Shown: positions 27,197-52,527 of the stretch, piece by piece | Numbering within the stretch: the stretch's first letter is position 1 | How the letters are laid out: each line of letters begins with the position of its first letter | Position numbers and translations under genes: made by a program | Assembly: GCA_938041455.1 (NCBI GenBank) | Contig: CALITO010000008.1 | Location: 120,416-184,415 of the forward strand | Length of the DNA: 64,000 nt | Reading direction: 5' to 3' | Source of the DNA: an uncultured bacterium | GTDB taxonomy: Bacteria > Armatimonadota > JACIXR01 | Notes under the pieces: model-generated | What the model was told of the DNA's origin: nothing | Seen by the model: only the letters and a program-made list of their open reading frames with translations | Databases searched by the model: none

Positions 27197-28629
27197 TAAA
27201 TCCTCCCTCTGGGCTTTATATAAGAGAGGATAGATGTCAAGTCCCAGTGAGGGGGCTCACTGCTACCGCACCTCGTCCTCCTATTGACCTTGCTTATATA
27301 GCAGGTGTTTTGGAAAAAGAGGGTGTGGAATGCAGAATAAGGGATTATCCGGTGGAAGGTAAAGGATGGAGTGCTTTGAGGGATGATTTGGAAATTTTCG
27401 CTCCTGACCTTCTTATCGTCAGCGTCACAACTCCCACTTTTGAACTTGATATGAAAGCTTGTGAAATAGCCAAAGGGATAAACCCTTCCATAATTACAGC
27501 AGCTAAGGGGGGGCATATAACTGTCTTTGATAAAAAAGCTTTGGAAAAACATCCTTCTTTGGATATCGCTTTACGAGGAGAAGTAGAAAAAACAGTAGAG
27601 GAATTGGCAAAGGGAATGCCTTGGGAAGAGATACGGGGTATAACTTACAGAAGCAATGGGAAAATAATGCGAAATCCTGACAGGGAATTCATAGAGGACC
27701 TCGATTCAGTTCCTTTCCCCGCTCGGCACTTATTGAACAATTCCCTTTATAAAAGACCTGATACAGGGGAGCCCCAAACCACAATCCAAACGAATAGAGG
27801 ATGTCCTGGGGAGTGTGTTTTCTGTCTCGCTGGTAGATTATCTGGTAAAAAACTTCGTTTACGCTCCCCTCACAATATCGTTGATGAAATAGAGGAATGT
27901 CTCCAGCGCTTCAACATAAGGAACTTTTTCTTTCGGGCAGATACCTTTACTTGGAATAAGGAGTGGGTTATCGCAATATGCAAGGAAATATTGAGACGAG
28001 ATTTGAGGATAAAGTGGGTTTGCAATAGCCGAGTGGATACGCTTGACGAGGAGATGTTGAAATGGATGAGAGGAGCGGGTTGTTGGCTAATCTCCTTAGG
28101 AATAGAGAGCGGATCCCAAAGGATAATAGATTTGATGAAGAAAAGGATAAGGAAGGAGCAAGCCAAACGGGCAGTAGAACTTTGTAGTAAATATAAGATA
28201 AAGACATATGCTTTTTATCTCTTTGGTTTACCCTGGGAAGAGGAAGAAGAGGTGAAGGAAACGATAAAATTTGCTCTTGAGCTGGATTCAGACTACGCAG
28301 AGTTCCATCTCGCAGTTCCCTTCCCGGGCACAGAACTCTACGATATCGTTTTACAGGAAGGACTTTTGGAAGGCGATTTCCAAGGTTATGACCACTCCCT
28401 ACCCGTGGCGAGGACCTTTGCTCTATCCAGGGAAGAGTTAGTAAAATGGAGAAGGAAAGCAATATATAAGTTCTACCTTCGTCCCCATTATATAATCCGC
28501 ACTATTATGGGCTCGCCTTCGCCTGTTTCTCTTTTCAACTACCTTCGTTTCGCTTTTGAGAGAATCCTCCTTTTGCCCTCAACATATAGGAAAGCAGAAA
28601 TTGAACCTAGCCCCATTAGGGCGAAGTAA
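27172..28629 (+). CDS. B12-binding-domain radical SAM enzyme (class B)
   Basis: N-terminal Rossmann-like cobalamin domain (ALLINPP..., DLLIVSVTT) and the CxxxCxxC cluster motif NRGCPGECVFCLAG. Confidence 0.85.
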   Translation: MWFRRALLINPPSGLYIREDRCQVPVRGLTATAPRPPIDLAYIAGVLEKEGVECRIRDYPVEGKGWSALRDDLEIFAPDLLIVSVTTPTFELDMKACEIAKGINPSIITAAKGGHITVFDKKALEKHPSLDIALRGEVEKTVEELAKGMPWEEIRGITYRSNGKIMRNPDREFIEDLDSVPFPARHLLNNSLYKRPDTGEPQTTIQTNRGCPGECVFCLAGRLSGKKLRLRSPHNIVDEIEECLQRFNIRNFFFRADTFTWNKEWVIAICKEILRRDLRIKWVCNSRVDTLDEEMLKWMRGAGCWLISLGIESGSQRIIDLMKKRIRKEQAKRAVELCSKYKIKTYAFYLFGLPWEEEEEVKETIKFALELDSDYAEFHLAVPFPGTELYDIVLQEGLLEGDFQGYDHSLPVARTFALSREELVKWRRKAIYKFYLRPHYIIRTIMGSPSPVSLFNYLRFAFERILLLPSTYRKAEIEPSPIRAK

Positions 28630-30788
28630 AACCCAAGCTTAAAGGTGAAAGGGCGATAGGCTAATATAACTTCGTGTTCGCCTGCGGGGACGAGAACTCC
28701 CTGAAATGTGAAATTCGCTGGCACAACCCTCTTTTCCTCCCCATCTACGAATGCCTTCCAGCCAGGGAAAAATGTCTCCGTTATCACGAGATACGCTTCT
28801 CTATCACTTTTGATTTGGAGTTTTAAAAAGCCGGTCCTTTCTTCCCTCAAAGAGATGAAATATTCCCCTATTTGATTGTGCAATGGTTTCCCTTCTTCAA
28901 TGATAACCACTCTTGTGTCATATATGGAAGGGAGAGAGGCAAGGGCTTCCTCTTCCTCTATAATTTTCAAAGTCTCGCCTGCAAGATAGAAGCGAGGGAA
29001 TGCGTTCTTATTCTCAATCACATATAATCCACCCTCATAATACAGAGGGAGCAATCCAGTAGTATTTAAAATTTTTTTAGAGAATATGTATCTGATAGCA
29101 GCGATGTTAAGCAGTGAAGAAGTGGGTTGGGTAAAATAGAGGGCGTTGCTTCTTTCCTTGTTTTGGTTAACTAACTGAGCAAAGAGGAGTAAACGTAGGG
29201 GATAAAGAGAATCCCCCCCTTGTGCTTCTTTCAAGCCGAGAAGGATATTGCAATTGGGTAGAAGGGTGTCTAGGGGGTCTCTCTCTCCAGGGAAGGCGAG
29301 GAAATGTCCTTCTTTAGGAAGCTGGGCAAGCCTCTCGCTAAAAGTAGTATGAGGAAATAACATAGAGGGTGGAAGAGCAGGGTTAAAGCGGAGTCCGAAA
29401 GCGAACATATCGGCTACTGCAAGAAAAGGCAGAAACTTGGTTTTCTTCAAACTTGTTAGAATAAGGGCAAGGGAAGCAACGAGGAAGAAGTGTATAAGCG
29501 CGCGAGGGGAGGGGAAACCGCTTTTCACTGCTTCATAGGAGATTCCCATACCTGTAAATAAAATTAGAGTGCCGAAGATGAAATAGGAGGTTTTAGAAGG
29601 TATGTATTTTAAGTTGTCCAACCCTATAGCAGCGATGGCACCAAAGGCAAAAGCGGATATATATAGATTTCTTGCGGGTGCTGCGAGAAAAGAAAAAACA
29701 GGTAGGGAAAGCAAAAGCCGAAGAAAAGGGGTATTGAGGGCAAAAAGAATAGATATCGAAGCTAAAAAAAGGAAGAATTTTCCTTCCTTTCTCTTAAGGG
29801 CTGAGGGCAAGAGAAAGAAAGGGAGTATTCCGAAGTATCCGCTCAATTCAACATAGTTGAAAGCGCCTCTGTAATCATAGTCCACCGGGTTGCCATAAAA
29901 ATCAGGAATGAGGAAAGTATAAAGATGGCGCCAGGGCATAGAGGTACTTAGGAGGTCGGAGAGCGAAGAGCCAAGGGAACGATGGCTCTTTAGCGCTAAC
30001 TCAAAGGAAGGGAGAAGCTGAGGTAGGGAAAGGATAAGCCCGATGCTGAAGCTAAGCAGGAATCCAATATAGCCTTCTTTAAATTTTCTTTCTGTGAAGA
30101 TCTGGAAAAAGGTGAAGAGGGAAAAAGCGAGCCAACCATAAAGGGCGAACTGAGGATGTCCACCCAAGATACTCAAGGCAAGAGGGAAACCGGCGAAGAG
30201 AGCATAAATGTGCTTTCCCTGTAATATATAGAGCCTCCATAAGAGAAGAGAAAGGGGAAACCAGCTCATAGAACAGATGGGTGTTTGATACTCCGCCCAC
30301 ACTACCATTGGTCCTGAGAATGTCCAAGTTATGGCACCTAAAAGGGATGCAGTTTGGCTAAGCCCAAGAGAACAGAGGAAGAGATAAGCGAAGAGGGAAG
30401 TCAAGATAAAATGAAATATTATAGTGAACGTCATAAACCAGTGAGGGGGTATGAAAAGTAGAAGCCAGTTTAGGGGGTAAAGACAAGCAGAAGCCATATT
30501 AGCTAAAAAGGGCTGTCCACAGAAATTATAGGTATTCCAAAGGGGTATAAATCCATCTCTTAAACTCTTTTCCAAAAGGACGCGCCAGGGATAAAAGTAG
30601 AGAATAGTGTCCAGAAGGGGATTGTAAACTTTACGGAAGGAGGGAAAAAGGGTAGGGGAATAATTTCTCCAAGGTTGGAGGCGCAGGCTCAAATCAGCGG
30701 GTAATAGGATGTTTCCCTCAAATACCTTATAAAAGAAGACGAGGACTAAAAGGAAGAGTAGTAAAATACAAAGGATATGCTTTTTCAA
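28539..30788 (-). CDS. YfhO-like polytopic membrane protein (GT-C-type glycosyltransferase candidate)
   Basis: 749 aa with more than 12 hydrophobic segments, then a C-terminal soluble beta-rich domain and a final TM. This architecture is typical of YfhO-family proteins. Confidence 0.6.
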   Translation of the reverse strand: MKKHILCILLLFLLVLVFFYKVFEGNILLPADLSLRLQPWRNYSPTLFPSFRKVYNPLLDTILYFYPWRVLLEKSLRDGFIPLWNTYNFCGQPFLANMASACLYPLNWLLLFIPPHWFMTFTIIFHFILTSLFAYLFLCSLGLSQTASLLGAITWTFSGPMVVWAEYQTPICSMSWFPLSLLLWRLYILQGKHIYALFAGFPLALSILGGHPQFALYGWLAFSLFTFFQIFTERKFKEGYIGFLLSFSIGLILSLPQLLPSFELALKSHRSLGSSLSDLLSTSMPWRHLYTFLIPDFYGNPVDYDYRGAFNYVELSGYFGILPFFLLPSALKRKEGKFFLFLASISILFALNTPFLRLLLSLPVFSFLAAPARNLYISAFAFGAIAAIGLDNLKYIPSKTSYFIFGTLILFTGMGISYEAVKSGFPSPRALIHFFLVASLALILTSLKKTKFLPFLAVADMFAFGLRFNPALPPSMLFPHTTFSERLAQLPKEGHFLAFPGERDPLDTLLPNCNILLGLKEAQGGDSLYPLRLLLFAQLVNQNKERSNALYFTQPTSSLLNIAAIRYIFSKKILNTTGLLPLYYEGGLYVIENKNAFPRFYLAGETLKIIEEEEALASLPSIYDTRVVIIEEGKPLHNQIGEYFISLREERTGFLKLQIKSDREAYLVITETFFPGWKAFVDGEEKRVVPANFTFQGVLVPAGEHEVILAYRPFTFKLGFYFALMGLGSISAFLYVEGKRRILSKAKRR

Positions 30789-32368
30789 TCTCTAACCCTC
30801 CATATCCTTGCTTCCCCATTTTGGAAGACGAGTTGTAGGAAGGGATTGTTAAATTCTAAAAATTCAGGAGCCAAAAAATGCTCATAATTACCATAATAAA
30901 CATAATTTATATTATTTCGGTGAAGAAAAGCTTTCCTTAACTCTTCGTCTTTACCCTTATAGAACTGCAGAACCTTTTTATATTTCTCAAGGTAATCCGG
31001 CGTTTCTCCCCAATGCCCCGCGTAAACTCGCCTCCCGGTGAGAGAAGGGATATAGCAAGCGAAATCCGGGATAGCCAAAATCACCTCCTTAGGAGTTGTG
31101 TAATCTCTGAACCAATTTAAAGCCTCTATCTCCGAGTTTGTAAGATAGGTAGGTTGAGGATAGAGAGATTGATTTGTTACAAGGGAATATATATCCGTTC
31201 CCAAAATCATCCCATTTGAAAGGAAAAGAAAGAAGAGGAGAAAAGGTAGGAGATTTCTTCTGTTTTCAAGGAAGCGGTTTGTAACGGCGATTGTGGCTAA
31301 TATGGCAAGGGGTATTTGGGTTCCCATAAAGAGTTTTCGCTGGAAGGAAAAGGGTAAATAGGGGAGGATAAAACCAGCAAGGGCCCAGGCGATTAAGAAA
31401 AGGGAGGTAGCGTTTACTTCCTCCTCTCTTACCTTCTTTATAATTGCCCAGATGGCAAGAGGAATTAAAAAACCCATCCCAGTTAGGTACCAATAAAAGG
31501 GGGGAGAGAGGGTGGGGACCTCTGCCCTTTTAGCAAACAAGGGTTCCTTCTGTAAAAGGTAAATTTGGTAATATAGGGCTGGAGAGGCTAATATAAGGGC
31601 GACCCCAGCGTTCAGGATATCCTTCCAGGGTATTTTCTTATCTTTTGCGGAAAGTAGAAAAACATATAATATCCAGACGGCACCTACGATAAGCACATCA
31701 TATGTATGCACATTGGCAAGTATAAGGAGAGAAAATCCCGCTATTAAGCCTCCTTTCCAATCCTTCCTTATGAGAAGGGGGAGAAAAAAACCGAGTATTA
31801 ATAGAAGGGCGAAGGTGAAGAGGGGGTTGACATAAAGGGTAAAGAAAACAGTAGATTCTGGCTGCCATAGATCAACGGAGTTCGCAATCCCTCTCGCTGG
31901 AGAATAGCCACCCGTCAACCAGCCCGCTCCCGAGGAAAAAACCACCATAAGAAGACCTATCATTCTCTTTTTTCTCTCGGGAAATACATAGCAAAGGAAG
32001 GCGTAAAGAAAGCAAAGCAAACCAAAGGCAAAGATATAGCGAGAAATGAACAAGATTTTCAGAGGCGAGATGTGAGTTAATTTGCACAATCCCCCCAGAA
32101 GGAGGGCAAAGAGGTTGAAAAAAGGATGTTGCTGTTCTAAGTTAGTGAAAAGATTAACGAAGAGGATGTGTCCTTGTTTGACCTGCTCTATCCAAGAGAG
32201 GTAAACCGCCAAGTCGTCTTTAAGTCTGAGAAGTGCGAGAAATTTTGCCCCATAGGGTGTTAGCATAGCGCCCACTACATAGGGGAGGGAAAAAAGAAAG
32301 GAGAGAATGAGGAAAACAGCAAGAAGCCAAATAATATCTTCTTTAAAAGGAAAAGAGCTCTTCTTCAT
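30785..32368 (-). CDS. polytopic membrane protein, ArnT/PMT-like GT-C glycosyltransferase candidate
   Basis: About 12 TM segments and a C-terminal soluble domain of about 130 aa. I prefer the ATG at 32368 (MKKSSFPF), which abuts the rodA stop. The family call is tentative. Confidence 0.4.
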   Translation of the reverse strand: MKKSSFPFKEDIIWLLAVFLILSFLFSLPYVVGAMLTPYGAKFLALLRLKDDLAVYLSWIEQVKQGHILFVNLFTNLEQQHPFFNLFALLLGGLCKLTHISPLKILFISRYIFAFGLLCFLYAFLCYVFPERKKRMIGLLMVVFSSGAGWLTGGYSPARGIANSVDLWQPESTVFFTLYVNPLFTFALLLILGFFLPLLIRKDWKGGLIAGFSLLILANVHTYDVLIVGAVWILYVFLLSAKDKKIPWKDILNAGVALILASPALYYQIYLLQKEPLFAKRAEVPTLSPPFYWYLTGMGFLIPLAIWAIIKKVREEEVNATSLFLIAWALAGFILPYLPFSFQRKLFMGTQIPLAILATIAVTNRFLENRRNLLPFLLFFLFLSNGMILGTDIYSLVTNQSLYPQPTYLTNSEIEALNWFRDYTTPKEVILAIPDFACYIPSLTGRRVYAGHWGETPDYLEKYKKVLQFYKGKDEELRKAFLHRNNINYVYYGNYEHFLAPEFLEFNNPFLQLVFQNGEARIWRVRD

Positions 32369-33480
32369 CGGAAGGAAAGCTTTTTCCTCCTCTGATACAC
32401 GCTCTGCACTATTCCTGCCATAATACAAAAGGCGAGCAAGTTGCTACCGCCATAGGTTAAAAAGGGTAGGGGAATGCCCACTGCTGGTATTAAACCCAGT
32501 GTCATCCCGATATTGACGAAGATATGAAATGTCAATAGCACACCCACCGAAGCAGAGAGCAATTGACCTAATGTATCCTCTGTCTCCAAGGCAGTGAGAA
32601 AGCAACGCCATATTAAGATAAAATATAGGGAGAGTATGAAAATACAACCGGCGAAGCCGAGCTCCTCACCCGCCACTGTGAAAATAAAATCGGTATGCTG
32701 GGCGGGTATATAATTCAACCGATTTTGGGTTCCTCTAAATATTCCCTTTCCCCAAACCTCTCCAGAACCTATAGCTATCCTTGATTGAATTATGTGATAG
32801 CCTGCTCCTAAGGGGTCATACCGCGGATTTAAAAATGCCTGTATGCGTTTCTTCTGATATGGACGAAGAATATCAAGGTGCCAAGCACCTACCGCAAGAA
32901 GAAGACCAGCGACTCCTAGGGCAATTATCTGCTTAGCCTTTGTACCCACAATAAGAAGCGATGCCAACCATAAGGTTATGAAGGTGAGAGAGGTCCCAAG
33001 GTCCGGTTGGATGAATACAAGTAGAGTGGGAATAATTATATGGAGAAAGGAACGAAAAATTGTCCTTAAATCTTTTGCTTCCTGATGTTGCCTAGCCCAA
33101 AAAGAGGAAAGAGTTAGGAGGAGCATAACTTTAGCGAATTCAGATGGTTGGATGGTTATTGGACCAAGAACAAACCATCTCTGCGCTCCGCTTGTTCTTC
33201 TGCCCAATAGAAGAACAAGAACAAGTAATACCAGCATAAAGAAGTAAATGTGCCCAGAGAAACGAGGGAATTGTCTGTAATCGGTCGAGGCCATAAGAAA
33301 AAAGAAGAAAAGGGAGAAAATAACCCATATAGCCTGCTTAGTGAGAAAACCGAGAGCTCGGGTGTTAGAAGGAACAGTTTCTAAAGTAGCACTGTATATG
33401 AGTAAAAGTCCTATTCCCATAAGAAGAAACATAGGAATAAAAAAGTAATAGTCTATCCCCTTGAAGAATTTCCTTAGCAT
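32365..33480 (-). CDS. rodA: SEDS-family peptidoglycan glycosyltransferase (RodA/FtsW)
   Basis: QPSEFAK, PDLGTSL, TDFIFTVAGEELGFAG and GIPLPFLTYGGSN motifs. 371 aa. Confidence 0.85.
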   Translation of the reverse strand: MLRKFFKGIDYYFFIPMFLLMGIGLLLIYSATLETVPSNTRALGFLTKQAIWVIFSLFFFFLMASTDYRQFPRFSGHIYFFMLVLLVLVLLLGRRTSGAQRWFVLGPITIQPSEFAKVMLLLTLSSFWARQHQEAKDLRTIFRSFLHIIIPTLLVFIQPDLGTSLTFITLWLASLLIVGTKAKQIIALGVAGLLLAVGAWHLDILRPYQKKRIQAFLNPRYDPLGAGYHIIQSRIAIGSGEVWGKGIFRGTQNRLNYIPAQHTDFIFTVAGEELGFAGCIFILSLYFILIWRCFLTALETEDTLGQLLSASVGVLLTFHIFVNIGMTLGLIPAVGIPLPFLTYGGSNLLAFCIMAGIVQSVYQRRKKLSFR

Positions 33481-33528: not shown

Positions 33529-35937
33529 TTAAAACTTCCTCTGAGACTTTGAAGAATTAAAGATGGCGACCATCTTTGGCCCTTTTCTTTCCGTCAAGTA
33601 GAAGGGTAAGATAGGTGCTATTCCTTTCTCCAAATCGCAAGATTTATGAGGTAGCAAAAGTATGAAGGATTCCTGAGGACGATTTATTTGGGTAGAGGTT
33701 TGGAAAACATAAAATATATCTACCCAGTCACCGCCGTCATAAAATCTCGTTACATCGTAGGTTCGGCTTCTACTATCTATCCACCTTTTCACCACTCCTA
33801 TCCCGAGACCAAGCGGGGGTTTATCCCAGCAGAAGTCAAGCCATCCTACTTTTCGAGAATTATCCGGTGCTGGCGAACTTCCAAGATAGCCGAAATAGAT
33901 GTCCCTATACTGTTCGCTGTTTTCCAATCTCCCCTTGTTGATTCTCATAGCTTCCTCTCCAGGGAATGCTTGGAAAAAACCCTCTCTTTGTTCAAATCCA
34001 GCCCCCTCTCTCGCTAAATCTAATTCCAAAGCAATCTCCGGAATTATTTCCCTCCTTATCTCTATGAGAGGGCTATGAAAATAAAATATATAGTGGCTCC
34101 TTCCCTTTAATCCATTACCTTTTAGGGGAACTATCACCTCTTGGAAAACCTTTCCTTTCCTAAGTAAGACTTCTGCCCTTAGGGGAGTTAGGTTAAAGGA
34201 AGGATGTAGTTCAATTCGCCAGGGAGAAGAAAATAAGTTCTCCCCGTTAACCTTTAAGCTTCTTATCTCGTCTTTGGTTATATCAAGGCTAACTTGGTAG
34301 AACTCGTTAACGAAATCTATGTTTTCTTGAGGAGAGAATGAAGAATTTGCCTTTTCTTCTGGGTATATAATATAAAAGCGGTTTTTGCCCGGAGGGATAT
34401 CTTTCTCAACCCATATCAATTCGCCCTTCTCGCTACTTTGGGCTGATATTTCCTCCGTAGCTTCTCCTTGGTAATTGGAGAGAAATACCCTTGCTGAAGC
34501 CCATCTATTGGGCAAAGAGAAACGAAGGGGTTGTTGTCTTCGGGGGTAAGGGGAAGAGGGTAGCCATACAGCAAGATTTTCCTCACTTTTTAAAGCGGGA
34601 ACATCAATACCTATTGCTTCCTCCTCTTCGCTATCCAAAATCGTTATGTTAGAACCCGTTTTGATTTTTACCTTTATAGTATGAAAGCCACTTCTCATAT
34701 TATCTAAAACAAAGGTAAAGTCCTTTGTCTCCTCGACTTTTAATCTTTTTATAGTGGACTTTTTTGTTTCCTTTCCATCTACCCAAAGGAAAACTTCAAC
34801 TGGTCCTCCATCCATATTCCCTATATTTTTAACCTTTCCTACAACCACAGGTTTTCCTTGGTATTCTTTTATCTGCCATTCGTAAGTAATGACAGGTAGG
34901 ACAAAGTAGCGGTAAAAAAGCTCATCAGATAGTTTGTCTAATTGGGGAACGCTACCATAATAGAAGATAGCGATTCCGAGTATATTTGGACAAAGACTTT
35001 TAATTATCCTAAACTGCGCTTCTAATTCTTTAGATGTTGTCAAAAGCACTCCTTGGTTGGGTTGATAATTTATTCCCAAGCCAAGAAGGGTTTTCCTTTC
35101 TAACTTCTTATCTCTAATCTCCTCTAAATATTTCCTCAATATCCCAAGGTGCATATTGTGGTAATTGAGGTAGCACTCGGGTAAGAAGTAATCCACATAG
35201 GGAACAATGTCTTCGGGTATCGCACCCACGCACCAAAGTGCTACTTTCAAATTAGGATGCCTTTCTTTAAACTTCTTAATAGCCTCTATCACTTTTTCTC
35301 CTGCCTCGCCTCCTCCATAATATTCATCTATCCCTATTCCCTCAGCACCTCCTGGTATTTTTGACCAGCAGAAGACCTGTTCTTCAACAGAGGCATCTTT
35401 ATGTGTATCCCAAAAGCAGACGCCCGGCTTGAACGCAAGCGCTGTGCGTCCCTCCCATAACCATTCTCCAATATAATCTTCTTCTATTGTCGTGCTCAAA
35501 GTTGCCCACCGCAAATCCTTAGGTGTGCCATACCAGGCAAACTCCACTTTCCTTTCTACCACGGGGAAGGAAAATTTAGTCGCTTTCTTTTCTTTCTCTG
35601 TGTCAAGGTATAACTCAACCTCGTAAACGCCGTTTTCCTCGGCTCTCCATTCCCCTATCTCGATCTTTTGTCTTTCTCCTCCTCCTATCGGACCTATCGT
35701 GATCTGTTTAAATCTCTTTTTCTTATCTTTTCCCAGATAAAGGGTAAGGTTTGCCCTTTCTACAGGTTTATCTCCTTCATTGAATATAGTAGTTCGGAAT
35801 TTTATCTTTTCCCTAACTACAGGAAGGATAGGGGAAGTGAACAGTTTTTCAATTTTCAAAGGAAAAGCCTGTAGTCCTAAAAATAGAATTAAGCAAGAAC
35901 TTTTTAGAAGTGGAGCAGAATGCAGATTTTTAAACAT
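33529..35937 (-). CDS. secreted 802-aa multidomain protein of unknown function
   Basis: N-terminal signal-like segment (SSCLILFLGLQA), two CARDB-like beta-sandwich stretches (about aa 35-125 and 370-440), a central alpha/beta region containing GIGIDEYYGGGE and an uncharacterised C-terminal half of about 350 aa. Confidence 0.5.
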   Translation of the reverse strand: MFKNLHSAPLLKSSCLILFLGLQAFPLKIEKLFTSPILPVVREKIKFRTTIFNEGDKPVERANLTLYLGKDKKKRFKQITIGPIGGGERQKIEIGEWRAEENGVYEVELYLDTEKEKKATKFSFPVVERKVEFAWYGTPKDLRWATLSTTIEEDYIGEWLWEGRTALAFKPGVCFWDTHKDASVEEQVFCWSKIPGGAEGIGIDEYYGGGEAGEKVIEAIKKFKERHPNLKVALWCVGAIPEDIVPYVDYFLPECYLNYHNMHLGILRKYLEEIRDKKLERKTLLGLGINYQPNQGVLLTTSKELEAQFRIIKSLCPNILGIAIFYYGSVPQLDKLSDELFYRYFVLPVITYEWQIKEYQGKPVVVGKVKNIGNMDGGPVEVFLWVDGKETKKSTIKRLKVEETKDFTFVLDNMRSGFHTIKVKIKTGSNITILDSEEEEAIGIDVPALKSEENLAVWLPSSPYPRRQQPLRFSLPNRWASARVFLSNYQGEATEEISAQSSEKGELIWVEKDIPPGKNRFYIIYPEEKANSSFSPQENIDFVNEFYQVSLDITKDEIRSLKVNGENLFSSPWRIELHPSFNLTPLRAEVLLRKGKVFQEVIVPLKGNGLKGRSHYIFYFHSPLIEIRREIIPEIALELDLAREGAGFEQREGFFQAFPGEEAMRINKGRLENSEQYRDIYFGYLGSSPAPDNSRKVGWLDFCWDKPPLGLGIGVVKRWIDSRSRTYDVTRFYDGGDWVDIFYVFQTSTQINRPQESFILLLPHKSCDLEKGIAPILPFYLTERKGPKMVAIFNSSKSQRKF

Positions 35938-35989
35938 TTCCCGAATAATTGTAATTTTTCTTCAGGAATCCATCAAACTCGTTTTTGGC

Positions 35990-37933
35990 CTATGGCCAAG
36001 GGAAGAAAGGCACTGGATTATTCGTTAAGCAGGCATAAAAGGTCAAAAGGACTGCCATCGTGAATTCTCCAAATATCAAGCCCAAGAAGAAAAGGCGAGT
36101 TTTAGCGAAAAGGCGCATTCCTCCCATAAAAAGTATAAAGGATTTGATGAGCCAGGCGAGGAAGATGGGGAACCAGAAAACTATGCATCCCCAGGATGTG
36201 GATAACGCAAAGCCGAGGGGATGAAGTGGCCACCACCAGAACCTTGTCCTCATAAAAATTAAAAACAAGGTGAACAAGGCACCTCCGAAGAAGAAGGGGA
36301 TGTATCGGACATTGCTGGGAACCTTATTCTCTATAAAGGAGGCATTCTCCAGGAAGTAACGAAGGTTATCACCCCTAAAGGAAAACCAGTAAAGATTCAA
36401 TCCTCCTTTCTTATAAACTATCAGTAAGTGAAAAAAAGTAGCTACAACAATAGAGAAGGGAACCGCTAATCCGAATAGGAAGGCTAAATTTCTTCTCTTC
36501 ATTTTTAAGCTATCGCCTATTTTGAAACTATCCAGAAAACCTGTTATCAATATTCCTCTCAAGTCCCTCGCAAATAGGGAATCCATAAAGGGGAGAATGG
36601 AAAGGTTCTGCGCTCCTAAAGAACTCGGGGAGGCGAAAAGTGAATAAATATCTATGGGAGTAAAGCAACCCTCTGTCATTATCATTCCCCCCTCAGAGGT
36701 TGAGCGTGAAGCTATCACAGCTTCTACAAAGATGTAAATCATAAATTGAAAGAAGGCTAACCATAGAGCCATTCCCGCCATATTGCTCCAAATACCTATA
36801 AGTATTATCGCTATTAACAATCCTAAAAGGGCTATCTTATAGGGCACAACCTCAGCGGGGTCCTCTCTTTCCTTCCCTATAACGCAACGAAAAACACGCT
36901 TCAAGTGAGGAAGAGCAATGTAGAAAAGATAGCCCGCCAAGATAAAGAAAGCCCCGGCCGTCTCATAGGCAACGAACAGTTGTGCCCCCGCGTGGGGAGC
37001 AATAGTCGTCTCGGCTCCAAAAGCGGTGGCTAAAATCTCCTGCGCCCTGAAAAATAAATAGAAAAACCAAAAGCTGAACAAAAGTTGGGTAGGTAGAAGG
37101 TAGAAGAAACCTATCGTGGCGAAGGAGATATAGATATAAAGATATTCCAGGTTGTCCCAGGGACGTCCGGTTAAATATTGCTTTAAATTTATTGTGAGGT
37201 TTACGGAGGGTAAATAAGGGAAGACTTTTTGTAATGTATTGAGGCTATAGACTAAGGCAGGAATGGCAAAACCTAACCACATGGTTTTGTTGGAGAGAAA
37301 AGTATTTCCTGCGCTGATCATCTCTATTGGAAGTTGGGTCAATGGGAAGGGAAGTTTCTCTCCCTCTATCCATTGCTTCCGAAAAATCACAGCGAGACAG
37401 AAAAAGGAAAAAAAGACAAGCAGAACGAGGATGTACCACCTTAAAAGAGGTAGCAACCATCTGAGCCAGGGGATATCGCTGAACGCATAATACCCCTCGT
37501 AATAACCTTTAACTATTTCCTGCCTTTCCATTCCAGAAGGATTCCAGGGAACGAGCCAACTTTTTATATAGGGGAAAAATATTTGTTGCCATTTATTTAC
37601 TTGATTAGCGTAATAATTGATGCCCGTAAGGGTAGAAGGGAGATCCTCCATTAAACCCCTCGATGAAATCATAGAACTGATGAGCATCATAAAGAAGATG
37701 ACTGCTAATTCCTGGAATGAAAGGGGCTTTAGGAAAGGGGAAAGGAACCTATTTGCTAATAGGAGAAGAAATAACATCCCTACCGCTACAGGCGGTAGTT
37801 GAAGGAAGCCAATTTGGATTGAAGCGGTTACTAACTCCGCCCAGGTTACAATGAAGGCGACAATAGAAGCAAAGAGGAAGCCGAGAAGAAGTGCTCGGGC
37901 GGTCAATTTCTCCCTTAGGGATGTGCCAGCCAA
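35990..37933 (-). CDS. orphan polytopic membrane protein (about 14 TM)
   Basis: 647-aa ORF that is hydrophobic throughout, with a WWWPLHPLGFA motif near the C-terminus. There is no in-frame ATG before TM1. Candidate starts are the TTG at 37933 (inside the hairpin loop) or the TTG at 37906. I do not recognise the family. Confidence 0.6.
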   Translation of the reverse strand: MAGTSLREKLTARALLLGFLFASIVAFIVTWAELVTASIQIGFLQLPPVAVGMLFLLLLANRFLSPFLKPLSFQELAVIFFMMLISSMISSRGLMEDLPSTLTGINYYANQVNKWQQIFFPYIKSWLVPWNPSGMERQEIVKGYYEGYYAFSDIPWLRWLLPLLRWYILVLLVFFSFFCLAVIFRKQWIEGEKLPFPLTQLPIEMISAGNTFLSNKTMWLGFAIPALVYSLNTLQKVFPYLPSVNLTINLKQYLTGRPWDNLEYLYIYISFATIGFFYLLPTQLLFSFWFFYLFFRAQEILATAFGAETTIAPHAGAQLFVAYETAGAFFILAGYLFYIALPHLKRVFRCVIGKEREDPAEVVPYKIALLGLLIAIILIGIWSNMAGMALWLAFFQFMIYIFVEAVIASRSTSEGGMIMTEGCFTPIDIYSLFASPSSLGAQNLSILPFMDSLFARDLRGILITGFLDSFKIGDSLKMKRRNLAFLFGLAVPFSIVVATFFHLLIVYKKGGLNLYWFSFRGDNLRYFLENASFIENKVPSNVRYIPFFFGGALFTLFLIFMRTRFWWWPLHPLGFALSTSWGCIVFWFPIFLAWLIKSFILFMGGMRLFAKTRLFFLGLIFGEFTMAVLLTFYACLTNNPVPFFPWP

Positions 37934-37953
37934 CTGGCTGGCACATCCCTAAG
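37914..37953. repeat. perfect 18-bp inverted repeat with a 4-nt spacer (intercistronic stem-loop)
   Basis: CTTAGGGATGTGCCAGCC (37914-37931), AACT, GGCTGGCACATCCCTAAG (37936-37953). The arms are exact reverse complements. Confidence 0.95.
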
Positions 37954-37962
37954 TTATTTAGT

Positions 37963-38613
37963 TTACCAAATCATCGCTGGCACTATATGCTCAGCGTGGA
38001 ATTCCCAAGTGCCAATCTCCTGTGAATGTAGCCACTTTACATGCCCATCGCAGAAAGCTATGTTATCCCCTTCAGAGTGGCGAGTATATTTTGGATCTCT
38101 GCGCTCCGGCATACATTGAGCAGCACAAGCATTGGGCCAAGCGATGAAGAAGGCGCAAGCGAAGGTAGTTAGGGAGTCACCCACCATAACTAAGTCAGCC
38201 GGTTTCTCCAATTTGGCGAGGGATAGACCGCGGGGTGGGCTACACCAGTGGGGGCACAACATACAGGATGCTATACCATAGTTAATATCTCCAGCTGGTT
38301 GGGTTGAACCATCCGGTTGGAGGATGCCAGCGGCCGCGGAGGGGCATTTCAGTACTTGAGCATTCTTCAAATAAGGTTGGATGAGGTCATACCACCATCT
38401 ATTGTCCGCACGGCTTCCCGTAGGTAAACACTCGTCCCAGTCCTGAGCATACATTAGAAACGCGTTAGCTATTTGCTTTAGGCTGGACTGGCAGTGAGCT
38501 TTTCTCGCCTGCTCCCTCGCTCTGGAAAAAACAGGGAACAGGATGGCCGCCAGGATAGCTATAATAGCTATAACGACCAAAAGCTCGATTAATGTGAAGC
38601 CTTTTCGCTTCAT
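37963..38613 (-). CDS. prepilin-type N-terminal cleavage/methylation protein of the H-X9-DG (DUF1559) class
   Basis: Class III signal MKRKG|[24 protein letters not shown] and a C-terminal [12 protein letters not shown] (His, 9 residues, Asp-Gly). 216 aa, Cys-rich. Confidence 0.9.
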
Positions 38614-38732
38614 ATCAAAAACACCTCCTATGGAAAATTTCTATTTTGTAAAAGATATAATATATGACCCCAAAGGGAAAAACTATAAATTTTTTATTGA
38701 GGAATAGGAGATTTTTAAGGTTTGTACCTGCT

Positions 38733-40004
38733 TCAAAGAATATTCAACTGTTTTCTCTTCGCTCTTCTATACATCAAGGGGGTAATTCTCGTTTCCCTTT
38801 TGAAAACAGCAGCGAAATATGCGGGATCGTTAAAACCCACTTGAAGGGCGATATCGGTTACTGAAAGGTCGGTGTTTTCCAAAAGCTCTTGCGCCTTACT
38901 TATTCTTACTTTGGACAAATACCTTGCGAAACTGCAACCTGTGGTTTTCTTGAATATAGCACTGAAATAACTTGGACTTAAGTGAACTGCCTTTGCTACT
39001 GTTTCTAACCTTATTTCCTCACGATAATTCTCCAATATATACTTCTTTGCTCTTTCCACTACCGACTGGGCAAGCCCCGGCTCTTCCCAAAGGGTCATAA
39101 GGTCGTTTATGATCCAGCTCATCGTCTCCACTATTTCTTCCTTTGTTTTGCATCTATCTAAAAGAGAGGCGTATTGTAGTGTAAGCTTTAAAAGATTGAC
39201 CTTACGGGCAGTGAACATTCTTATGACCCCTAATATGGAGAGAACTAATCCCCATACCTGGGATTTCACTACCAAGGGTTCTTTTTCCCAATTCTCGAGA
39301 ATAAGGTTGAGTATTCTGGAAAGAGACAGAAGAATGCTATTTTTCGTTCCATATCTCAGGCGTGTGAGAAGTTCTTTCTCTTCTTCATATGGATATCTGG
39401 ATTGATGTAGGGAAAGCCACAATTGGGAATTTATTAAGTCCTTCTCAAAATCCGCCTCGGCCCTTTTCATAAAAAGTTCTTTTAGCCTCCTATAAGCTCT
39501 TCTGCTATGCCTTAACGTGTGCATTATGGAGCCCCTGATATGGTTTATCAGTTCAAAAATTGTCCAGGAGACATCCTGCACAAGGCGAGGTGAGACCACG
39601 GGAAGTTGCCAATAAGCTTTCCTCAACTCTTCTTTATCGATGGGCAAGTCACATACTTTTTCCCAAATCTTCTCAAATCTTTCCTCACTTGGCTCCTCTG
39701 TGAGAAACTGCCCCAGCATAACGAAGGCAACGCATTTATCCATAAACATTACAGGAATAACACCATCTACCAAGCCGCCGTGGCATTGGTAGATATAGGG
39801 ACGCTTATTCCTACAAGCTATCCCGAGCGCCTGTTTGTCATTGCTCAAGCACCTGCTAAGCCCTTTATAGGTTTGTTGGATTAGTGCGCAATAGTTCTCA
39901 CGCGTGGCGGAGTGGGGAATTCCCACAGCGGGGCGCACATCTTCCGAAAGACAAACAGAAAGATGTAATTTCTCAAACTCTGAACTCTCCCAGTGTTTCG
40001 TCAT
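38733..40004 (-). CDS. PocR-sensor / AraC-family transcriptional regulator
   Basis: PocR pattern (CALIQQ...RCLSND...YIYQCHGGLVDGVIPVMFMDKCVAFVMLGQF) and a C-terminal double HTH (LSPSYFSAIFKKTTGCSF...DIALQVGFNDPAYFAAVFKRETRITP). I prefer the ATG at 40004 (GAGGAAGGA upstream). The TTG at 40040 is an alternative. Confidence 0.85.
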   Translation of the reverse strand: MTKHWESSEFEKLHLSVCLSEDVRPAVGIPHSATRENYCALIQQTYKGLSRCLSNDKQALGIACRNKRPYIYQCHGGLVDGVIPVMFMDKCVAFVMLGQFLTEEPSEERFEKIWEKVCDLPIDKEELRKAYWQLPVVSPRLVQDVSWTIFELINHIRGSIMHTLRHSRRAYRRLKELFMKRAEADFEKDLINSQLWLSLHQSRYPYEEEKELLTRLRYGTKNSILLSLSRILNLILENWEKEPLVVKSQVWGLVLSILGVIRMFTARKVNLLKLTLQYASLLDRCKTKEEIVETMSWIINDLMTLWEEPGLAQSVVERAKKYILENYREEIRLETVAKAVHLSPSYFSAIFKKTTGCSFARYLSKVRISKAQELLENTDLSVTDIALQVGFNDPAYFAAVFKRETRITPLMYRRAKRKQLNIL

Positions 40005-40031
40005 TCCTTCCTCACTTATAACCAGAAATTG

Positions 40032-40059
40032 TTGAACCAATAAATTGCTTTGCTATAAT
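40032..40059 (+). promoter_or_regulatory. promoter with extended -10 (TTGAAC-16-TGcTATAAT) for the BON-tyrS-purM unit
   Basis: TTGAAC at 40032-40037, TGC at 40051-40053 and TATAAT at 40054-40059. AAGGAGG at about 40086 precedes the ATG at 40102. Confidence 0.55.
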
Positions 40060-46474: not shown

Positions 46475-47452
46475 TTACATAGAGATCGTGATAGACACTA
46501 CTTTTTTATCACTACTTCTTATACCGAAGACAACACGGTAGCTCTCGTCATATCTGCAGAACATAATTCCTTCACTTGTTGATGTTTCCTCTGGCCAGCC
46601 GTAGGCCTGTAAGACATCGGTGTAGGAACTACCCAGAGTTATCCCTTTGGATGTGCGGGCTTTTTCCCACTTATTGCCGCTGACCGTTACTTCAACCACC
46701 CTTCCATCAGTTTGGGAAAGCGTTACTCTAAGGGTTATTCCACCCTTAAGGCGATAAACCCAGAGCACCTTATCGGGAGAAACGGTTATCTGAGGGGAAG
46801 GTGCAGCGCCGGGCATACCCATCATAGCTTGTGTGCTCGTTATCCCGGGAAGGGGGAAAACGGCTCCCTGGGGGCCAACTGGTCCACCCATCGGTGTGGC
46901 AGTTCCTGCTGGACGCATCCCGGGCATAGGACCCATTCCGGGACCCATCATTCCTGGCATTCCTGAACCCATCATTCCCGGTCCCATCATCCCCGGCATT
47001 CCTGAACCCATCATCCCCGGCACACCCATCCCTGGCGTCATTCCTGGACGTCCTCCCCCCATCACACCAGGGGTACTCGGTCCCATCGCCCCCGGCGTCA
47101 TTCCTGGCATACCCATTCCTGGCATACCCATTCCCGGCATACCCATTCCCGGCATACCCACTCCCGGCGTCATTCCTGGGCGTGCTCCCCCCATCACACC
47201 GGGCATACCTGCACCCATCATCCCGGGCAAGCCCGCTGTGGGAGTTGTTACCCCCGTCTGAAGACCCACTATTATTTCATCAGGTAGTCCGTAGAGTTTT
47301 ATAACATGGTCCCAGGATTTCCCTACCGTTATTCCTGCAATGGTTCGCTCAGGTGTAACTGTCTGCGCTCGGGACGCTGTTAGATCCTCTTGAGCGGAGG
47401 CACTTAACACTATAAAGCTCAGTATGAAGACAAAATAAGCTTTTTTCAACAA
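46475..47452 (-). CDS. secreted protein with a central Met/Gly/Pro tandem-repeat region of about 150 aa
   Basis: AGGAGGTGAT Shine-Dalgarno, then a TTG at 47452 giving MLKKAYFVFILSFIVLSASAQE (signal peptide). The ORF-track GTG at 47461 lies inside the Shine-Dalgarno. Flanking motifs IAGITVGKSWDHVIKLYGLPDE and SKGITLGSSYTDVLQAYGWPEE bracket the (MPGMG)n-type repeats. Confidence 0.7.
   Translation of the reverse strand: MLKKAYFVFILSFIVLSASAQEDLTASRAQTVTPERTIAGITVGKSWDHVIKLYGLPDEIIVGLQTGVTTPTAGLPGMMGAGMPGVMGGARPGMTPGVGMPGMGMPGMGMPGMGMPGMTPGAMGPSTPGVMGGGRPGMTPGMGVPGMMGSGMPGMMGPGMMGSGMPGMMGPGMGPMPGMRPAGTATPMGGPVGPQGAVFPLPGITSTQAMMGMPGAAPSPQITVSPDKVLWVYRLKGGITLRVTLSQTDGRVVEVTVSGNKWEKARTSKGITLGSSYTDVLQAYGWPEETSTSEGIMFCRYDESYRVVFGIRSSDKKVVSITISM
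47106..47165. repeat. 15-nt tandem repeat x4 (GGCATACCCATTCCY), encoding MPGMG units on the minus strand
   Basis: Units lie at 47106-47120, 47121-47135, 47136-47150 and 47151-47165 with 1-2 substitutions. A second, 39-nt repeat starts at 46956 and 46995 (GGCATTCCTGAACCCATCAT...). Confidence 0.9.
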
Positions 47453-47587
47453 TTGTATCACCTCCTATTCTTTTGACACAAAACGAGATAATTTTGTTTC
47501 CTTAGTTTAATGCTATCACTATTTTGTATCTTTGTCAAAATAATTTGCCCCAAATTGATATTGAATTATTCAATCAAGCCTTAGAAA

Positions 47588-50209: not shown

Positions 50210-51337
50210 TTATTCTTCTATGTAGCCTTTCTCTTTAGCCATATGATAATATCGTTCAGGGTCCGAAATAGACGCTTTCACAAGTTCAAGATAATAGAGA
50301 AAGTTCTCCAATGGGACATCGGGAGGAACCGAATGGTCAACGAAGGGGAAATATCCCCCCTGCATTGCCAACCAAGGAACCTTTCGCAAAACTTCTCTTT
50401 CTATCTCGTCCTTTGAACGAGCAAGTACCCTTTTATCAATATTCCCCATAAGTAAGAGGTCTTTCCCATATTTCTTTCTCAAACTGATTGCATCTTGGTT
50501 AGCCGCTACTTCAAGGGGGTATACCCCATTCACTCCCCCTTCAAGCCAGAGAGGAATTATGGGGTCATTATTGCCATCGCTATCTACCCAGATGATATCT
50601 ATGCCGTGGCTCCGTAGAAATTCTGTTACTCTCTTATAACAGGGTAGCATTATCTCCCGGAAATGCTTTGGAGAGATAAGGGGTCCCACCTTCATTCCCA
50701 AATCTTCCCAGAATAGGGCGAAATCCAGCTCTATTTCCTCCACAGCCTTTCTTATAACCTCTATTACGAAATCGGCTATATATTCGTCTATTTCCCTTAC
50801 GAAACCGGGGTCATCGTATAACATATAGGAAAGCCTCTCCATTCCCATCCAGTTTCTTACCCATCCGTAAAAGGAGCCCACGCTTATCCCCAGGGGGTAA
50901 TCTCTATTCTTTACTGATCTTTTATAATCTTCCCACCAGGCGGGATATCTACAGGGGGATTTGGGGTTCAACCTTTTCTTATATTCTTCCCAATCCTCCC
51001 TTGTCTTGACAGGGTAATCAAGCCACAAGGGCATGGAGAGCTCTGACTTATCCAGAAAGACTTTCTTTATTGTTCCATCGGAATCTCTTATCACCGTGGT
51101 CTTCTCCGCTTCGTCCACCTCTAAAGTTTCTACCTCAAAAGGTGGCACGAGCCCCAAGTTTATGGGCACAACCTCATAACGGTCAAATCCGAAGTAATGC
51201 ACCAAGTGCTCATCTTTGGGCAAGCCCTCTTCTTGCCATCTCAAAATCGTCTCATGCCAAAACCACTGGGGAACAAGAAAGGCTCTATCGGGATTGCCGA
51301 ATCTCGCTGTTTCCCGATATCGTTCTCTGTAGTTCAT
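50210..51337 (-). CDS. uroporphyrinogen-decarboxylase (URO-D) superfamily protein, function unknown
   Basis: N-terminal MNYRERY...PDR pattern and C-terminal GGYFPFVDHSVPPDVPLENFLYYLE, as in URO-D/MtaA-like TIM barrels. I prefer the ATG at 51337 (GGAG 9 nt upstream). Confidence 0.55.
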   Translation of the reverse strand: MNYRERYRETARFGNPDRAFLVPQWFWHETILRWQEEGLPKDEHLVHYFGFDRYEVVPINLGLVPPFEVETLEVDEAEKTTVIRDSDGTIKKVFLDKSELSMPLWLDYPVKTREDWEEYKKRLNPKSPCRYPAWWEDYKRSVKNRDYPLGISVGSFYGWVRNWMGMERLSYMLYDDPGFVREIDEYIADFVIEVIRKAVEEIELDFALFWEDLGMKVGPLISPKHFREIMLPCYKRVTEFLRSHGIDIIWVDSDGNNDPIIPLWLEGGVNGVYPLEVAANQDAISLRKKYGKDLLLMGNIDKRVLARSKDEIEREVLRKVPWLAMQGGYFPFVDHSVPPDVPLENFLYYLELVKASISDPERYYHMAKEKGYIEE

Positions 51338-51378
51338 CTGCATCATCTCCTTTTTGCAAAATATTATTTGAAAATAAA

Positions 51379-52527
51379 TTATAAATAAACCCCGTATTTC
51401 TTTCCAGCATTATACATAGCTTGAAAATTCCTTAAGGGGGTTTGAGGGGAGACATTATTTCCTTCACAGAATATCCACTTTCCCCCTTCCATAACGCCAG
51501 ACTGGCAAATCCTTTTGGTTTCCTTTTCGATCTCCTTAGGAGTTCCACTTCGCAGCAGCTCAGGATGCAAATTGCCGCGCAAAAGCACATCCGGTCCCAG
51601 TTCCCTCCTCGCCAATCCCAGGTCTGTGGGGAAGCCGAGGTCGAAAGAGGTAATATTAAGCTCGGTTTTCAAAATTTTCAAGTGCCTCTGGACTTTCCCA
51701 CAAAGGTGAATGGAGTTAGGTCCCCCTTTAGAAAAGGTGTTTACCAAACGCTTATGATAAGGGAGGACGAACTCTTTGTAATGCGGGGTTGAAAGAAGCT
51801 CTATGGAATCATCAGCAAAGCCCCAGCTTTGCGCCGGATATTCCCATCCCATTAAATCCCAGATTGCTTTTATCCTAACGATCGTGGCCTCGGTTATAAA
51901 ATCTAATAACCTATGCACAAAATCGGGCTGCTCATAAAGAGTAATACAAAGTTCGGTGGCTCCCATAAGGGCAGCAGCAACCGTGAAGGGTCCATCAGTT
52001 CCTCCTCCTGGAGGATAGGCCGTTTCACCAACTGGTATTCCCTCGAATTCTGCTTCTTTTAACTTTTCCTTAAAGTATTGGTATATCTGCATTCCGAACC
52101 CCATCCAGTTATCCTTTAAGGGGTCTGGTATACCTTTTTCTAACATTTCCTCCAATTTATTTCGTGGCAAAGGCGCAGCGTAGGGGACATTGTTTTTGGG
52201 GAAAATCACGTTGTTTCCGAGCCATCCAGCTTCATAGAAATTCTGTAAGTCTACGTAAACTCCTCCCCAATTATGCCGGGGATAACCCATCTCCATATCC
52301 TGAGGCACATTCAAGCGTATCCATTTCCTCAATTTGAGTTGGACTTCAAACATCACATCCGGGTCTTTTATATACTCCTCAAATGTATAACCTTCCTTAT
52401 TAAGTTCGGGTGTTAAAAGATAGAAACGAGGGTTAAAATTGAACACGATTGGCACCCTATAAGGTTTACCTTGATTGAAAGCATCCCAAAGTTTTTTAAC
52501 TTCCTCGTTATGCTTTTCGTAGTCCAT
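51379..52527 (-). CDS. uroporphyrinogen-decarboxylase (URO-D) superfamily protein, paralogous type
   Basis: KPYRVPIVFN N-terminal pattern and C-terminal GGKWIFCEGNNVSPQTPLRNFQAMYN. It starts 5 nt after the Omp85 stop. Confidence 0.55.
   Translation of the reverse strand: MDYEKHNEEVKKLWDAFNQGKPYRVPIVFNFNPRFYLLTPELNKEGYTFEEYIKDPDVMFEVQLKLRKWIRLNVPQDMEMGYPRHNWGGVYVDLQNFYEAGWLGNNVIFPKNNVPYAAPLPRNKLEEMLEKGIPDPLKDNWMGFGMQIYQYFKEKLKEAEFEGIPVGETAYPPGGGTDGPFTVAAALMGATELCITLYEQPDFVHRLLDFITEATIVRIKAIWDLMGWEYPAQSWGFADDSIELLSTPHYKEFVLPYHKRLVNTFSKGGPNSIHLCGKVQRHLKILKTELNITSFDLGFPTDLGLARRELGPDVLLRGNLHPELLRSGTPKEIEKETKRICQSGVMEGGKWIFCEGNNVSPQTPLRNFQAMYNAGKKYGVYL

Follow-up and report, generated by a model that had tools for sequence, protein, structure and literature searches.

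In several phyla each genome encodes tens to hundreds of DUF1559 paralogues, and a locus in which one of them is linked to its own regulator raises the question of what such a protein does for the genes around it. The 64,000-nucleotide stretch analysed here (hereafter the window; contig CALITO010000008.1 of assembly GCA_938041455.1, from an uncultured bacterium of the Armatimonadota lineage JACIXR01) contains a block of four co-directional genes. These encode a PocR-AraC regulator, a DUF1559/H-X9-DG prepilin-like protein (the pseudopilin), a DUF6785+DUF6784 membrane protein, and an 802-amino-acid (aa) protein that is exported or membrane-anchored. A first-pass annotation of the bare sequence had proposed a ligand-inducible envelope module in which the pseudopilin could be a capture component for the membrane protein and the 802-aa protein. 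We favour, with a probability of roughly 0.5, a composite substrate-inducible nutrient-acquisition locus made of two gene pairs, each of which recurs alone elsewhere and which are joined in this clade: the regulator with the pseudopilin, and the membrane protein, as an importer, with the 802-aa protein, as a glycosidase-like enzyme. The question would then shift from what the pseudopilin binds for a permease to why each pseudopilin is individually sugar-regulated.

The regulator combines a PocR sensory domain (97.9 bits) with a C-terminal AraC double helix-turn-helix (HTH_18, 84.8 bits; HTH_AraC in two stretches; all Pfam), as had been read from the sequence, and it is distinct from the Salmonella PocR equivalog (140.1 bits on NF047788, cut-off 500). 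The pseudopilin carries the class III signal MKRKG/FTLIELLVV, read directly with its G5/F6 junction and a glutamate at +5 (E10), together with an exact H-X9-DG motif (H179-x9-D189-G190) that is invariant in 30 homologues. Both features had been claimed before, and the profile matches agree with them: N_methyl (38.1 bits, cut-off 21.2), TIGR02532 (36.6 bits, cut-off 16.3), the H-X9-DG model TIGR04294 (21.3 bits, cut-off 19), and SBP_bac_10/DUF1559 (PF07596; 38.3 bits, cut-off 23.3), the last aligning residues 31–83 with profile positions 2–61 of 268 only. The full-length GspG model (TIGR01710) scored 40.2 bits against a cut-off of 88.85 and aligned with residues 4–59 only. Solved pilins likewise match only the N-terminal α1 helix (residues 2–62), and the globular domain (63–216) has no solved homologue by sequence. 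The window protein shares all three sequence signatures with the DUF1559 proteins of Planctomycetota, Verrucomicrobiota and Armatimonadota, and differs from typical members in being short (216 aa), in having a PocR-AraC partner, and in belonging to a small cysteine-rich subgroup. The subgroup is marked by a C-x2-C-P-x-W-C motif. Among the 10 cysteines of the window protein are those of this motif, in the form C-x2-C-P-H-W-C (residues 118–125) that the 14 nearest homologues share, and those of a nearly invariant C-x3-C (residues 163–167); disulfides or metal binding in the globular domain may be their role.

An older label for DUF1559 was solute-binding-protein family (PMC2754498), and in 2023 its function was still termed unknown (PMC10632474); the literature that we searched gives none. 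In Tuwongella, the neighbours of DUF1559 genes often encode proteins with signal peptides (PMC8567305). We report the neighbours of related pseudopilin genes in a set of compared genomic loci (L-numbers), which include NCBI "bacterium" metagenome-assembled genomes and Logan contigs. Orthologues of the window pseudopilin are 85–93% identical, and the next homologues fall to 57%. The three next-nearest homologues examined (50–57% identity) lie beside a LacI (L093) or ROK (L094, L095) regulator gene. The best metagenome match, on an unrelated contig (L096), has the same regulator-pseudopilin order as the window: a PocR-AraC gene, whose orthologue-like product is 41% identical to the window regulator over its full length, precedes a DUF1559 gene (43% identity), which is followed by YdjC, with GH42-like and ceramidase-like genes upstream. 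LacI, a pseudopilin and a β-helix protein follow one another in L100, and a pseudopilin and a β-helix protein in L099. Across 80 metagenome DUF1559 loci, phmmer searches with five regulator query sequences identified regulators at 5 of 64 pseudopilin-adjacent genes and at 7 of 264 non-adjacent genes, and the same scan found only one among 745 genes in DUF6785 loci. DUF6785 was absent from the 63 scanned neighbours of other DUF1559 genes. As judged from these gene contexts, the pseudopilin appears to track a regulator across distant genomes, and not the transporter.

The membrane protein had been described as an orphan with about 14 transmembrane segments and no nameable family. Its polytopic character holds, but it is no orphan: DUF6785 (457.4 bits; E 6.7e-137; cut-off 25) and DUF6784 (97.4 bits; E 5.9e-28; cut-off 26.4) match in order, and homologues of the protein number at least 399, from Armatimonadota, Poribacteria and relatives, with genomic loci numbering 557 or more. 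No paper naming DUF6785 or DUF6784 was found in the literature searched. An AlphaFold2 model built from 25 homologues (predicted local distance difference test score, pLDDT, 87.7; predicted template-modelling score 0.89) contains ~16 membrane helices. Foldseek aligned this model with barley Yellow Stripe 1 in the PDB (HvYS1, 7wsr/7wst) at E 1e-8, probability 1.0 and TM-score 0.66/0.70 over 683 alignment columns; the next PDB match had E 0.065 and TM-score 0.14. References cited in PMC9691689 place YS1 in the OPT family and describe it as a proton-coupled symporter. The window protein resembles the OPT/Yellow Stripe-like carriers (TC 2.A.67) in its whole-length fold and its size of ~640 aa, whereas similarity in sequence is undetectable: identity in the structural alignment is 14%, no OPT-family match appeared among Pfam families at E ≤ 0.01 (only DUF6785 and DUF6784), and a profile of the transporter matched nothing among PDB sequences at E ≤ 10. 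With membership undetectable at the level of sequence, we speak of an OPT-like fold and refrain from assigning the protein to the OPT family. The model makes it a probable secondary importer that works like an OPT carrier; the analogy would have it take up small oligomers by proton coupling.

For the second pair, we compared 80 DUF6785 loci from other genomes of Armatimonadota, Poribacteria and others. A pseudopilin gene lies within 6 kb of DUF6785 in five of these loci and is a co-directional adjacent gene in none; likewise, none of the 80 has a homologue of the 802-aa protein or of the regulator PocR-AraC. A general conserved partner of DUF6785 was sought and rejected, as the upstream and downstream neighbours are mostly housekeeping genes. 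Hydrolase genes nevertheless recur in tight linkage. In other Armatimonadota, a large CBM9+GH123 gene overlaps DUF6785 by 4 nt in L022 (3284–5932) and abuts it with a 0-nt gap in L055 (3286–5955), and a GH2 gene with an exo-glucosaminidase immunoglobulin (Ig) domain and an F5/8 type C domain ends 15 nt before DUF6785 in L056 (2932–5943). These exo-glycosidase neighbours hint at amino-sugar oligomers as DUF6785 substrates. The clade that includes the window has a DUF6785 paralogue, 64–66% identical, that lies 3–13 nt after a Peptidase_M55 (D-aminopeptidase) gene in six loci (L006, L007, L008, L013, L015 and L014). In contrast to the metal-chelate carriers of the OPT family, DUF6785 is thus found in contexts that point to the products of glycosidases or D-aminopeptidases. 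A second association with D-amino-acid metabolism was observed in Poribacteria, where an Ala_racemase_N/D-Ser-dehydratase-like gene is convergent on DUF6785 in 23 loci, all of one lineage (for example L002 9971–11080, L029, L033–L036 and L040–L048). Tandem DUF6785 duplicates occur in L008 and in L001/L017.

The 802-aa protein had been read as bearing a signal peptide and CARDB-like modules. CARDB is its only Pfam match (48.9 bits), and a hydrophobic N-terminal segment is present in 10 of 10 homologues; the cleavable signal fared less well, as no clean A-x-A site is visible and an anchor is therefore possible in its place. Neither NCBIfam nor the three GH2 domain families (Glyco_hydro_2_N, Glyco_hydro_2, Glyco_hydro_2_C) gave a match, and a profile of the protein matched only a CARDB-like domain among PDB sequences. 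At the level of sequence the family is narrow, with 10 proteins at 49% identity or more. A structural model (pLDDT 82.4) comprises an N-terminal helix, an Ig/CARDB-like domain (27–127), a small α/β barrel (132–346), the CARDB domain (349–444) and a β-rich C-terminal region (455–800). The top Foldseek matches of this model are GH2 β-galactosidases (E 6e-21 to 1e-17), with a TM-score of only 0.33–0.37 and 8–10% identity. As modelled, the resemblance is one of co-linear domain architecture and not a family match: the order of Ig-like domain, α/β barrel, Ig-like domain and large β-rich C-terminal region is that of GH2 enzymes (LacZ; Thermotoga maritima 6sd0), whereas the N-terminal sugar-binding jelly-roll is missing and the barrel is much smaller (~215 aa). 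A hidden Markov model scan of 1.84 billion representatives identified 365 relatives at E ≤ 1e-3, many of which share the Ig-barrel-Ig portion only. In 10 distant relatives the barrel has no Pfam family, the only matches being CARDB, F5/8 type C and Big_7. D249, E254 and Y256 are the same in all of 26 sequences at 20–38% identity, and E205 in nearly all; the carboxylates E205 and E254 sit at barrel strand ends. The conserved barrel residues fit an active site without proving one, and the model suggests a putative glycosidase that belongs to no glycoside hydrolase (GH) family at the level of sequence.

How the two pairs stay together can be followed among close relatives. Only the window, L005 and L011/L012, three lineages of a single narrow uncultured clade, carry the four-gene block intact. 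Synteny extends into the upstream flank (BON-like, TyrRS, AIRS, GAF, sigma-70 and DnaG genes), and the downstream flank consists of rodA in the window, PTS_EIIB and glycerate kinase in L005/L009, and purH in L011. In GCA_014360495.1 (L009/L010; L009 8784–10001), the DUF6785 gene is a pseudogene with three deletions of ~590, ~140 and ~115 nt and a small indel, and the genes for the pseudopilin (88% identical) and a 794-aa enzyme are intact. In GCA_049970775.1 (L176, 9891–10001), which TyrRS (88% identity) places as sister to L009, the flank of PolA, DnaG, sigma-70, GAF, AIRS, TyrRS and BON-like genes runs straight into the gene for a 783-aa enzyme. This gene occupies the same chromosomal position, and the regulator, pseudopilin and transporter genes are all absent; parsimony indicates that they were lost in the L176 lineage. 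The adjacency on which the first-pass annotation relied is therefore kept in three lineages, but it has decayed in L009/L010 and L176 and is absent from the 80 other DUF6785 loci. Identity to relatives is 87–89% for the pseudopilin, 80% for DUF6785, 78% for TyrRS, 74% for AIRS, 70% for the regulator (to its counterparts in L009 and L011) and 52–54% for the 802-aa protein. By this measure the pseudopilin appears to be the most constrained protein, above its housekeeping neighbours (74–78%), and the enzyme the least.

The non-coding parts of the block add two conserved features. Open reading frame (ORF) coordinates agree with the earlier reading of four co-directional genes on the minus strand, separated by 119, 29 and 52 nt (Table 1). 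Alignment with three relatives, however, reveals a conserved TTG that places the start of the transporter 27 nt downstream of the listed ORF start and yields the length typical of its homologues, making this TTG the probable start codon. The gap between pseudopilin and transporter then widens to 56 nt and contains a perfect hairpin, which overlaps the listed ORF start. The hairpin (folding energy –41.2 kcal/mol, z-score –8.0) is the sole strong inverted repeat in 7.1 kb, and hairpins of other sequences stand at the same position in L005, L009 and L011 (–35.8, –35.0 and –28.7 kcal/mol, respectively). A scan of the 7.1 kb assigned it to no Rfam family, returning only a sub-threshold microRNA-shaped match. 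A canonical intrinsic terminator was considered and rejected: the only T-rich tail is antisense, and the sense strand has no U tract and runs on GGGAGAAATTG. Between the regulator and pseudopilin genes lies a block of 38 nt, CCTTAAAAATCTCCTATT-N5-ATAA(A/G)AAA-YTYATAG, that is nearly invariant across four relatives, in contrast to the encoded proteins, which are only 52–89% identical; such conservation makes it a likely promoter and operator. Taken together, the hairpin and the operator-like block suggest that the pseudopilin is the main regulated product.

Table 1. Features of the four-gene block, in window coordinates
Feature	Position	Strand	Size or remark
PocR-AraC regulator gene	38733..40040	-	435 aa
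Conserved non-coding block	38683..38720	-	between araC stop codon and pseudopilin start codon; likely promoter/operator
DUF1559/H-X9-DG prepilin-like gene	37963..38613	-	216 aa
Hairpin	37914..37953	-	perfect, 18–19 bp, GC-rich; directly 3' of pseudopilin stop codon
DUF6785+DUF6784 membrane-protein gene	35990..37906 (ORF extends to 37933)	-	638 aa from TTG; 647 aa as listed ORF
Promoter-like site TTGACC-18-AATAAT	36046..36017		10 of 12 matches; just upstream of the 802-aa protein gene
Exported/anchored protein gene	33529..35937	-	802 aa

In the composite locus that we favour, PocR-AraC would be a one-component cytoplasmic sensor of the sugar type that acts at the conserved 38-nt site to induce the pseudopilin, and the hairpin is probably an attenuator or 3'-end stabiliser that makes pseudopilin mRNA more abundant or more stable than that of the distal genes. 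A prepilin peptidase whose gene lies outside the window would mature the pseudopilin, whose role would be that of an inducible envelope accessory specific to the substrate, in the form of a fibre subunit or of a periplasmic protein anchored in the membrane, and not that of a dedicated binding protein of the DUF6785 permease. Of the second pair, the exported GH2-like enzyme would trim an extracytoplasmic glycan or glycoconjugate, and the OPT-fold carrier would import the released oligomers, possibly containing amino sugars or peptides, a substrate class suggested by what DUF6785 pairs with elsewhere. The logic is that of polysaccharide utilisation loci and sugar operons, in which a regulator, a binding protein, a transporter and a glycosidase are combined: here a regulator of the sugar type is joined by a transporter, a glycosidase-like enzyme and, outside the cytoplasm, an accessory whose paralogous family is hugely expanded. 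Unlike these systems, the block has no SusC/SusD, ABC system or TonB-dependent receptor, its accessory is prepilin-like and its carrier has an OPT fold, and family scans of the window ORFs found no ABC-type or SusC/D-type system. Viewed in this way, the block is a regulated utilisation locus assembled from unusual parts. The regulator, permease and hydrolase of the earlier envelope-module proposal remain a reasonable combination because of the carrier fold, the GH2-like layout with E205/E254, the upstream PocR/AraC gene and conserved block, and the coupling of DUF6785 to exo-glycosidases elsewhere; the pseudopilin as partner of the permease is the part left unsupported.

Several observations bear on how far this composite reading can be trusted. 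In its favour, the block is intact while the downstream flank differs in three ways; the strong constraint on the pseudopilin, the hairpins kept in position and the conserved non-coding block are on the same side. Co-directional genes and short gaps would suit a single operon, and are to be set beside the hairpin after the second gene and the promoter-like site before the fourth; given that site, the 802-aa protein gene may be transcribed separately, which counts against the reading. So does the narrowness of the clade, since with the upstream flank also syntenic, shared ancestry alone could explain the adjacency, and so does the piecemeal erosion of the block, which leaves a transporter pseudogene in L009/L010 and the enzyme alone in L176. 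Further points on the same side are that the enzyme matches no GH family in sequence, that most DUF6785 genes have housekeeping neighbours, and that the enrichment of regulators beside pseudopilins is modest (7.8% versus 2.7%, from five phmmer queries).

We consider it highly improbable that the pseudopilin is a periplasmic or surface capture partner that hands substrate to the DUF6785 permease in the manner of a solute-binding protein. In its favour, the two genes lie side by side in the window, L005 and L011, and a hairpin follows the first of them, as it does many binding-protein genes. Yet a pseudopilin is near DUF6785 in few of the other loci and never as its co-directional neighbour, no scanned neighbour of another DUF1559 gene is a DUF6785 gene, and OPT-type carriers are not known to use binding proteins. 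Service to the permease is unsupported because the two do not co-occur elsewhere, because in L009/L010 the transporter decayed independently of a pseudopilin that is intact at 88% identity, and because regulator, pseudopilin and transporter were all lost in L176 while the enzyme stayed. The survival of pseudopilin and enzyme genes beside the decayed transporter would instead suit a pseudopilin that is a cargo-specific subunit of a fibre resembling a type II secretion system (T2SS) or type IV pilus, encoded elsewhere, which exports or displays the 802-aa enzyme, with the transporter as an independent passenger. The host is evidently diderm, as BamA, TamB and TonB are encoded in the window, and the enzyme bears an export signal; large, probably exported carbohydrate-active proteins follow other DUF1559 genes (the β-helix proteins of L099 and L100, and a GH5), in line with the signal-peptide neighbours in Tuwongella (PMC8567305). 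We nonetheless judge this arrangement unlikely. L176 has the enzyme gene without a pseudopilin at the locus, an exported protein is not encoded beside every regulator-pseudopilin pair (L094 has a convergent gene next, and L096 a gene for a cytoplasmic-type YdjC), and the sub-cut-off GspG match is confined to the N-terminal helix. The secretion machinery was also not found: in agreement with the first-pass annotation, none of the 37 scanned window ORFs of at least 250 aa encodes an ATPase, platform protein, secretin or prepilin peptidase of a T2SS or type IV pilus. Five more ORFs of this size were assigned via synteny only (TyrRS, AIRS/PurM-like, GAF, sigma-70 and DnaG), and the ORF at 61114–62238 was left out of the family scan.

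The four genes might also form no functional module at all and be neighbours by descent in a narrow clade that work independently. Conservation of the whole region including the upstream flank, gene-by-gene erosion in relatives, the unrelated housekeeping genes beside most DUF6785 genes and the promoter-like site upstream of the enzyme gene would all follow from this. It sits poorly, however, with a block that stayed together while its downstream flank was replaced three times, with the short gaps between co-directional genes, and with the independent recurrence of regulator-pseudopilin and DUF6785-hydrolase pairs in distant genomes, and we hold independence by descent to be improbable as well.

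Beyond this clade, the composite reading raises the tentative and rather doubtful possibility that glycan-utilisation loci use DUF1559/H-X9-DG proteins as envelope components specific to a substrate, with each paralogue tied to a cytoplasmic sugar sensor of its own (LacI, ROK or PocR-AraC) and encoded near carbohydrate-active enzymes. If so, Planctomycetota, Verrucomicrobiota and Armatimonadota would have in DUF1559 their equivalent of the expanded SusD-like or binding-protein families of other saccharolytic bacteria, and the window locus would be among the most compact examples; the sugar-type regulator, as the consistent partner of DUF1559 here, offers a general lead. The DUF6785/6784 proteins, with hundreds of members in Armatimonadota and Poribacteria, would be OPT-fold importers tied to exo-hexosaminidases and a D-aminopeptidase and linked to uptake of the substrates of these enzymes, and the Ig-barrel-Ig family, with its 365 cluster representatives at E ≤ 1e-3, is a candidate for a new family of glycosidases. 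One locus thereby gives testable functional hypotheses for three uncharacterised families. As the clade is known from metagenome-assembled genomes only, the locus is a handle for bioinformatics and heterologous expression, not for genetics.

Outside the block, rodA is a fifth co-directional gene, 48 nt beyond the 802-aa protein gene. A functional tie of the block to rodA and the adjacent YfhO-like envelope genes was considered and rejected, since relatives carry PTS_EIIB/glycerate kinase or purH at this position. Downstream of rodA (28539–32428), two same-strand genes whose ends overlap encode large polytopic membrane proteins, one of 547 aa without a Pfam or NCBIfam family and the other of 749 aa and YfhO-like; together with RodA, they may form an envelope glycosylation or cell-wall unit. 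On the other side, a gene for a protein of ~290–330 aa without a Pfam family is kept between polA and dnaG both in the window (46475–47461) and in L176 (2549–3424). Farther along, a tandem pair of URO-D-like (uroporphyrinogen decarboxylase family) genes (50210–52527) adjoins the BamA gene (52533–54188), near which a TamB-like gene encodes a protein of 1443 aa (54772–59103).

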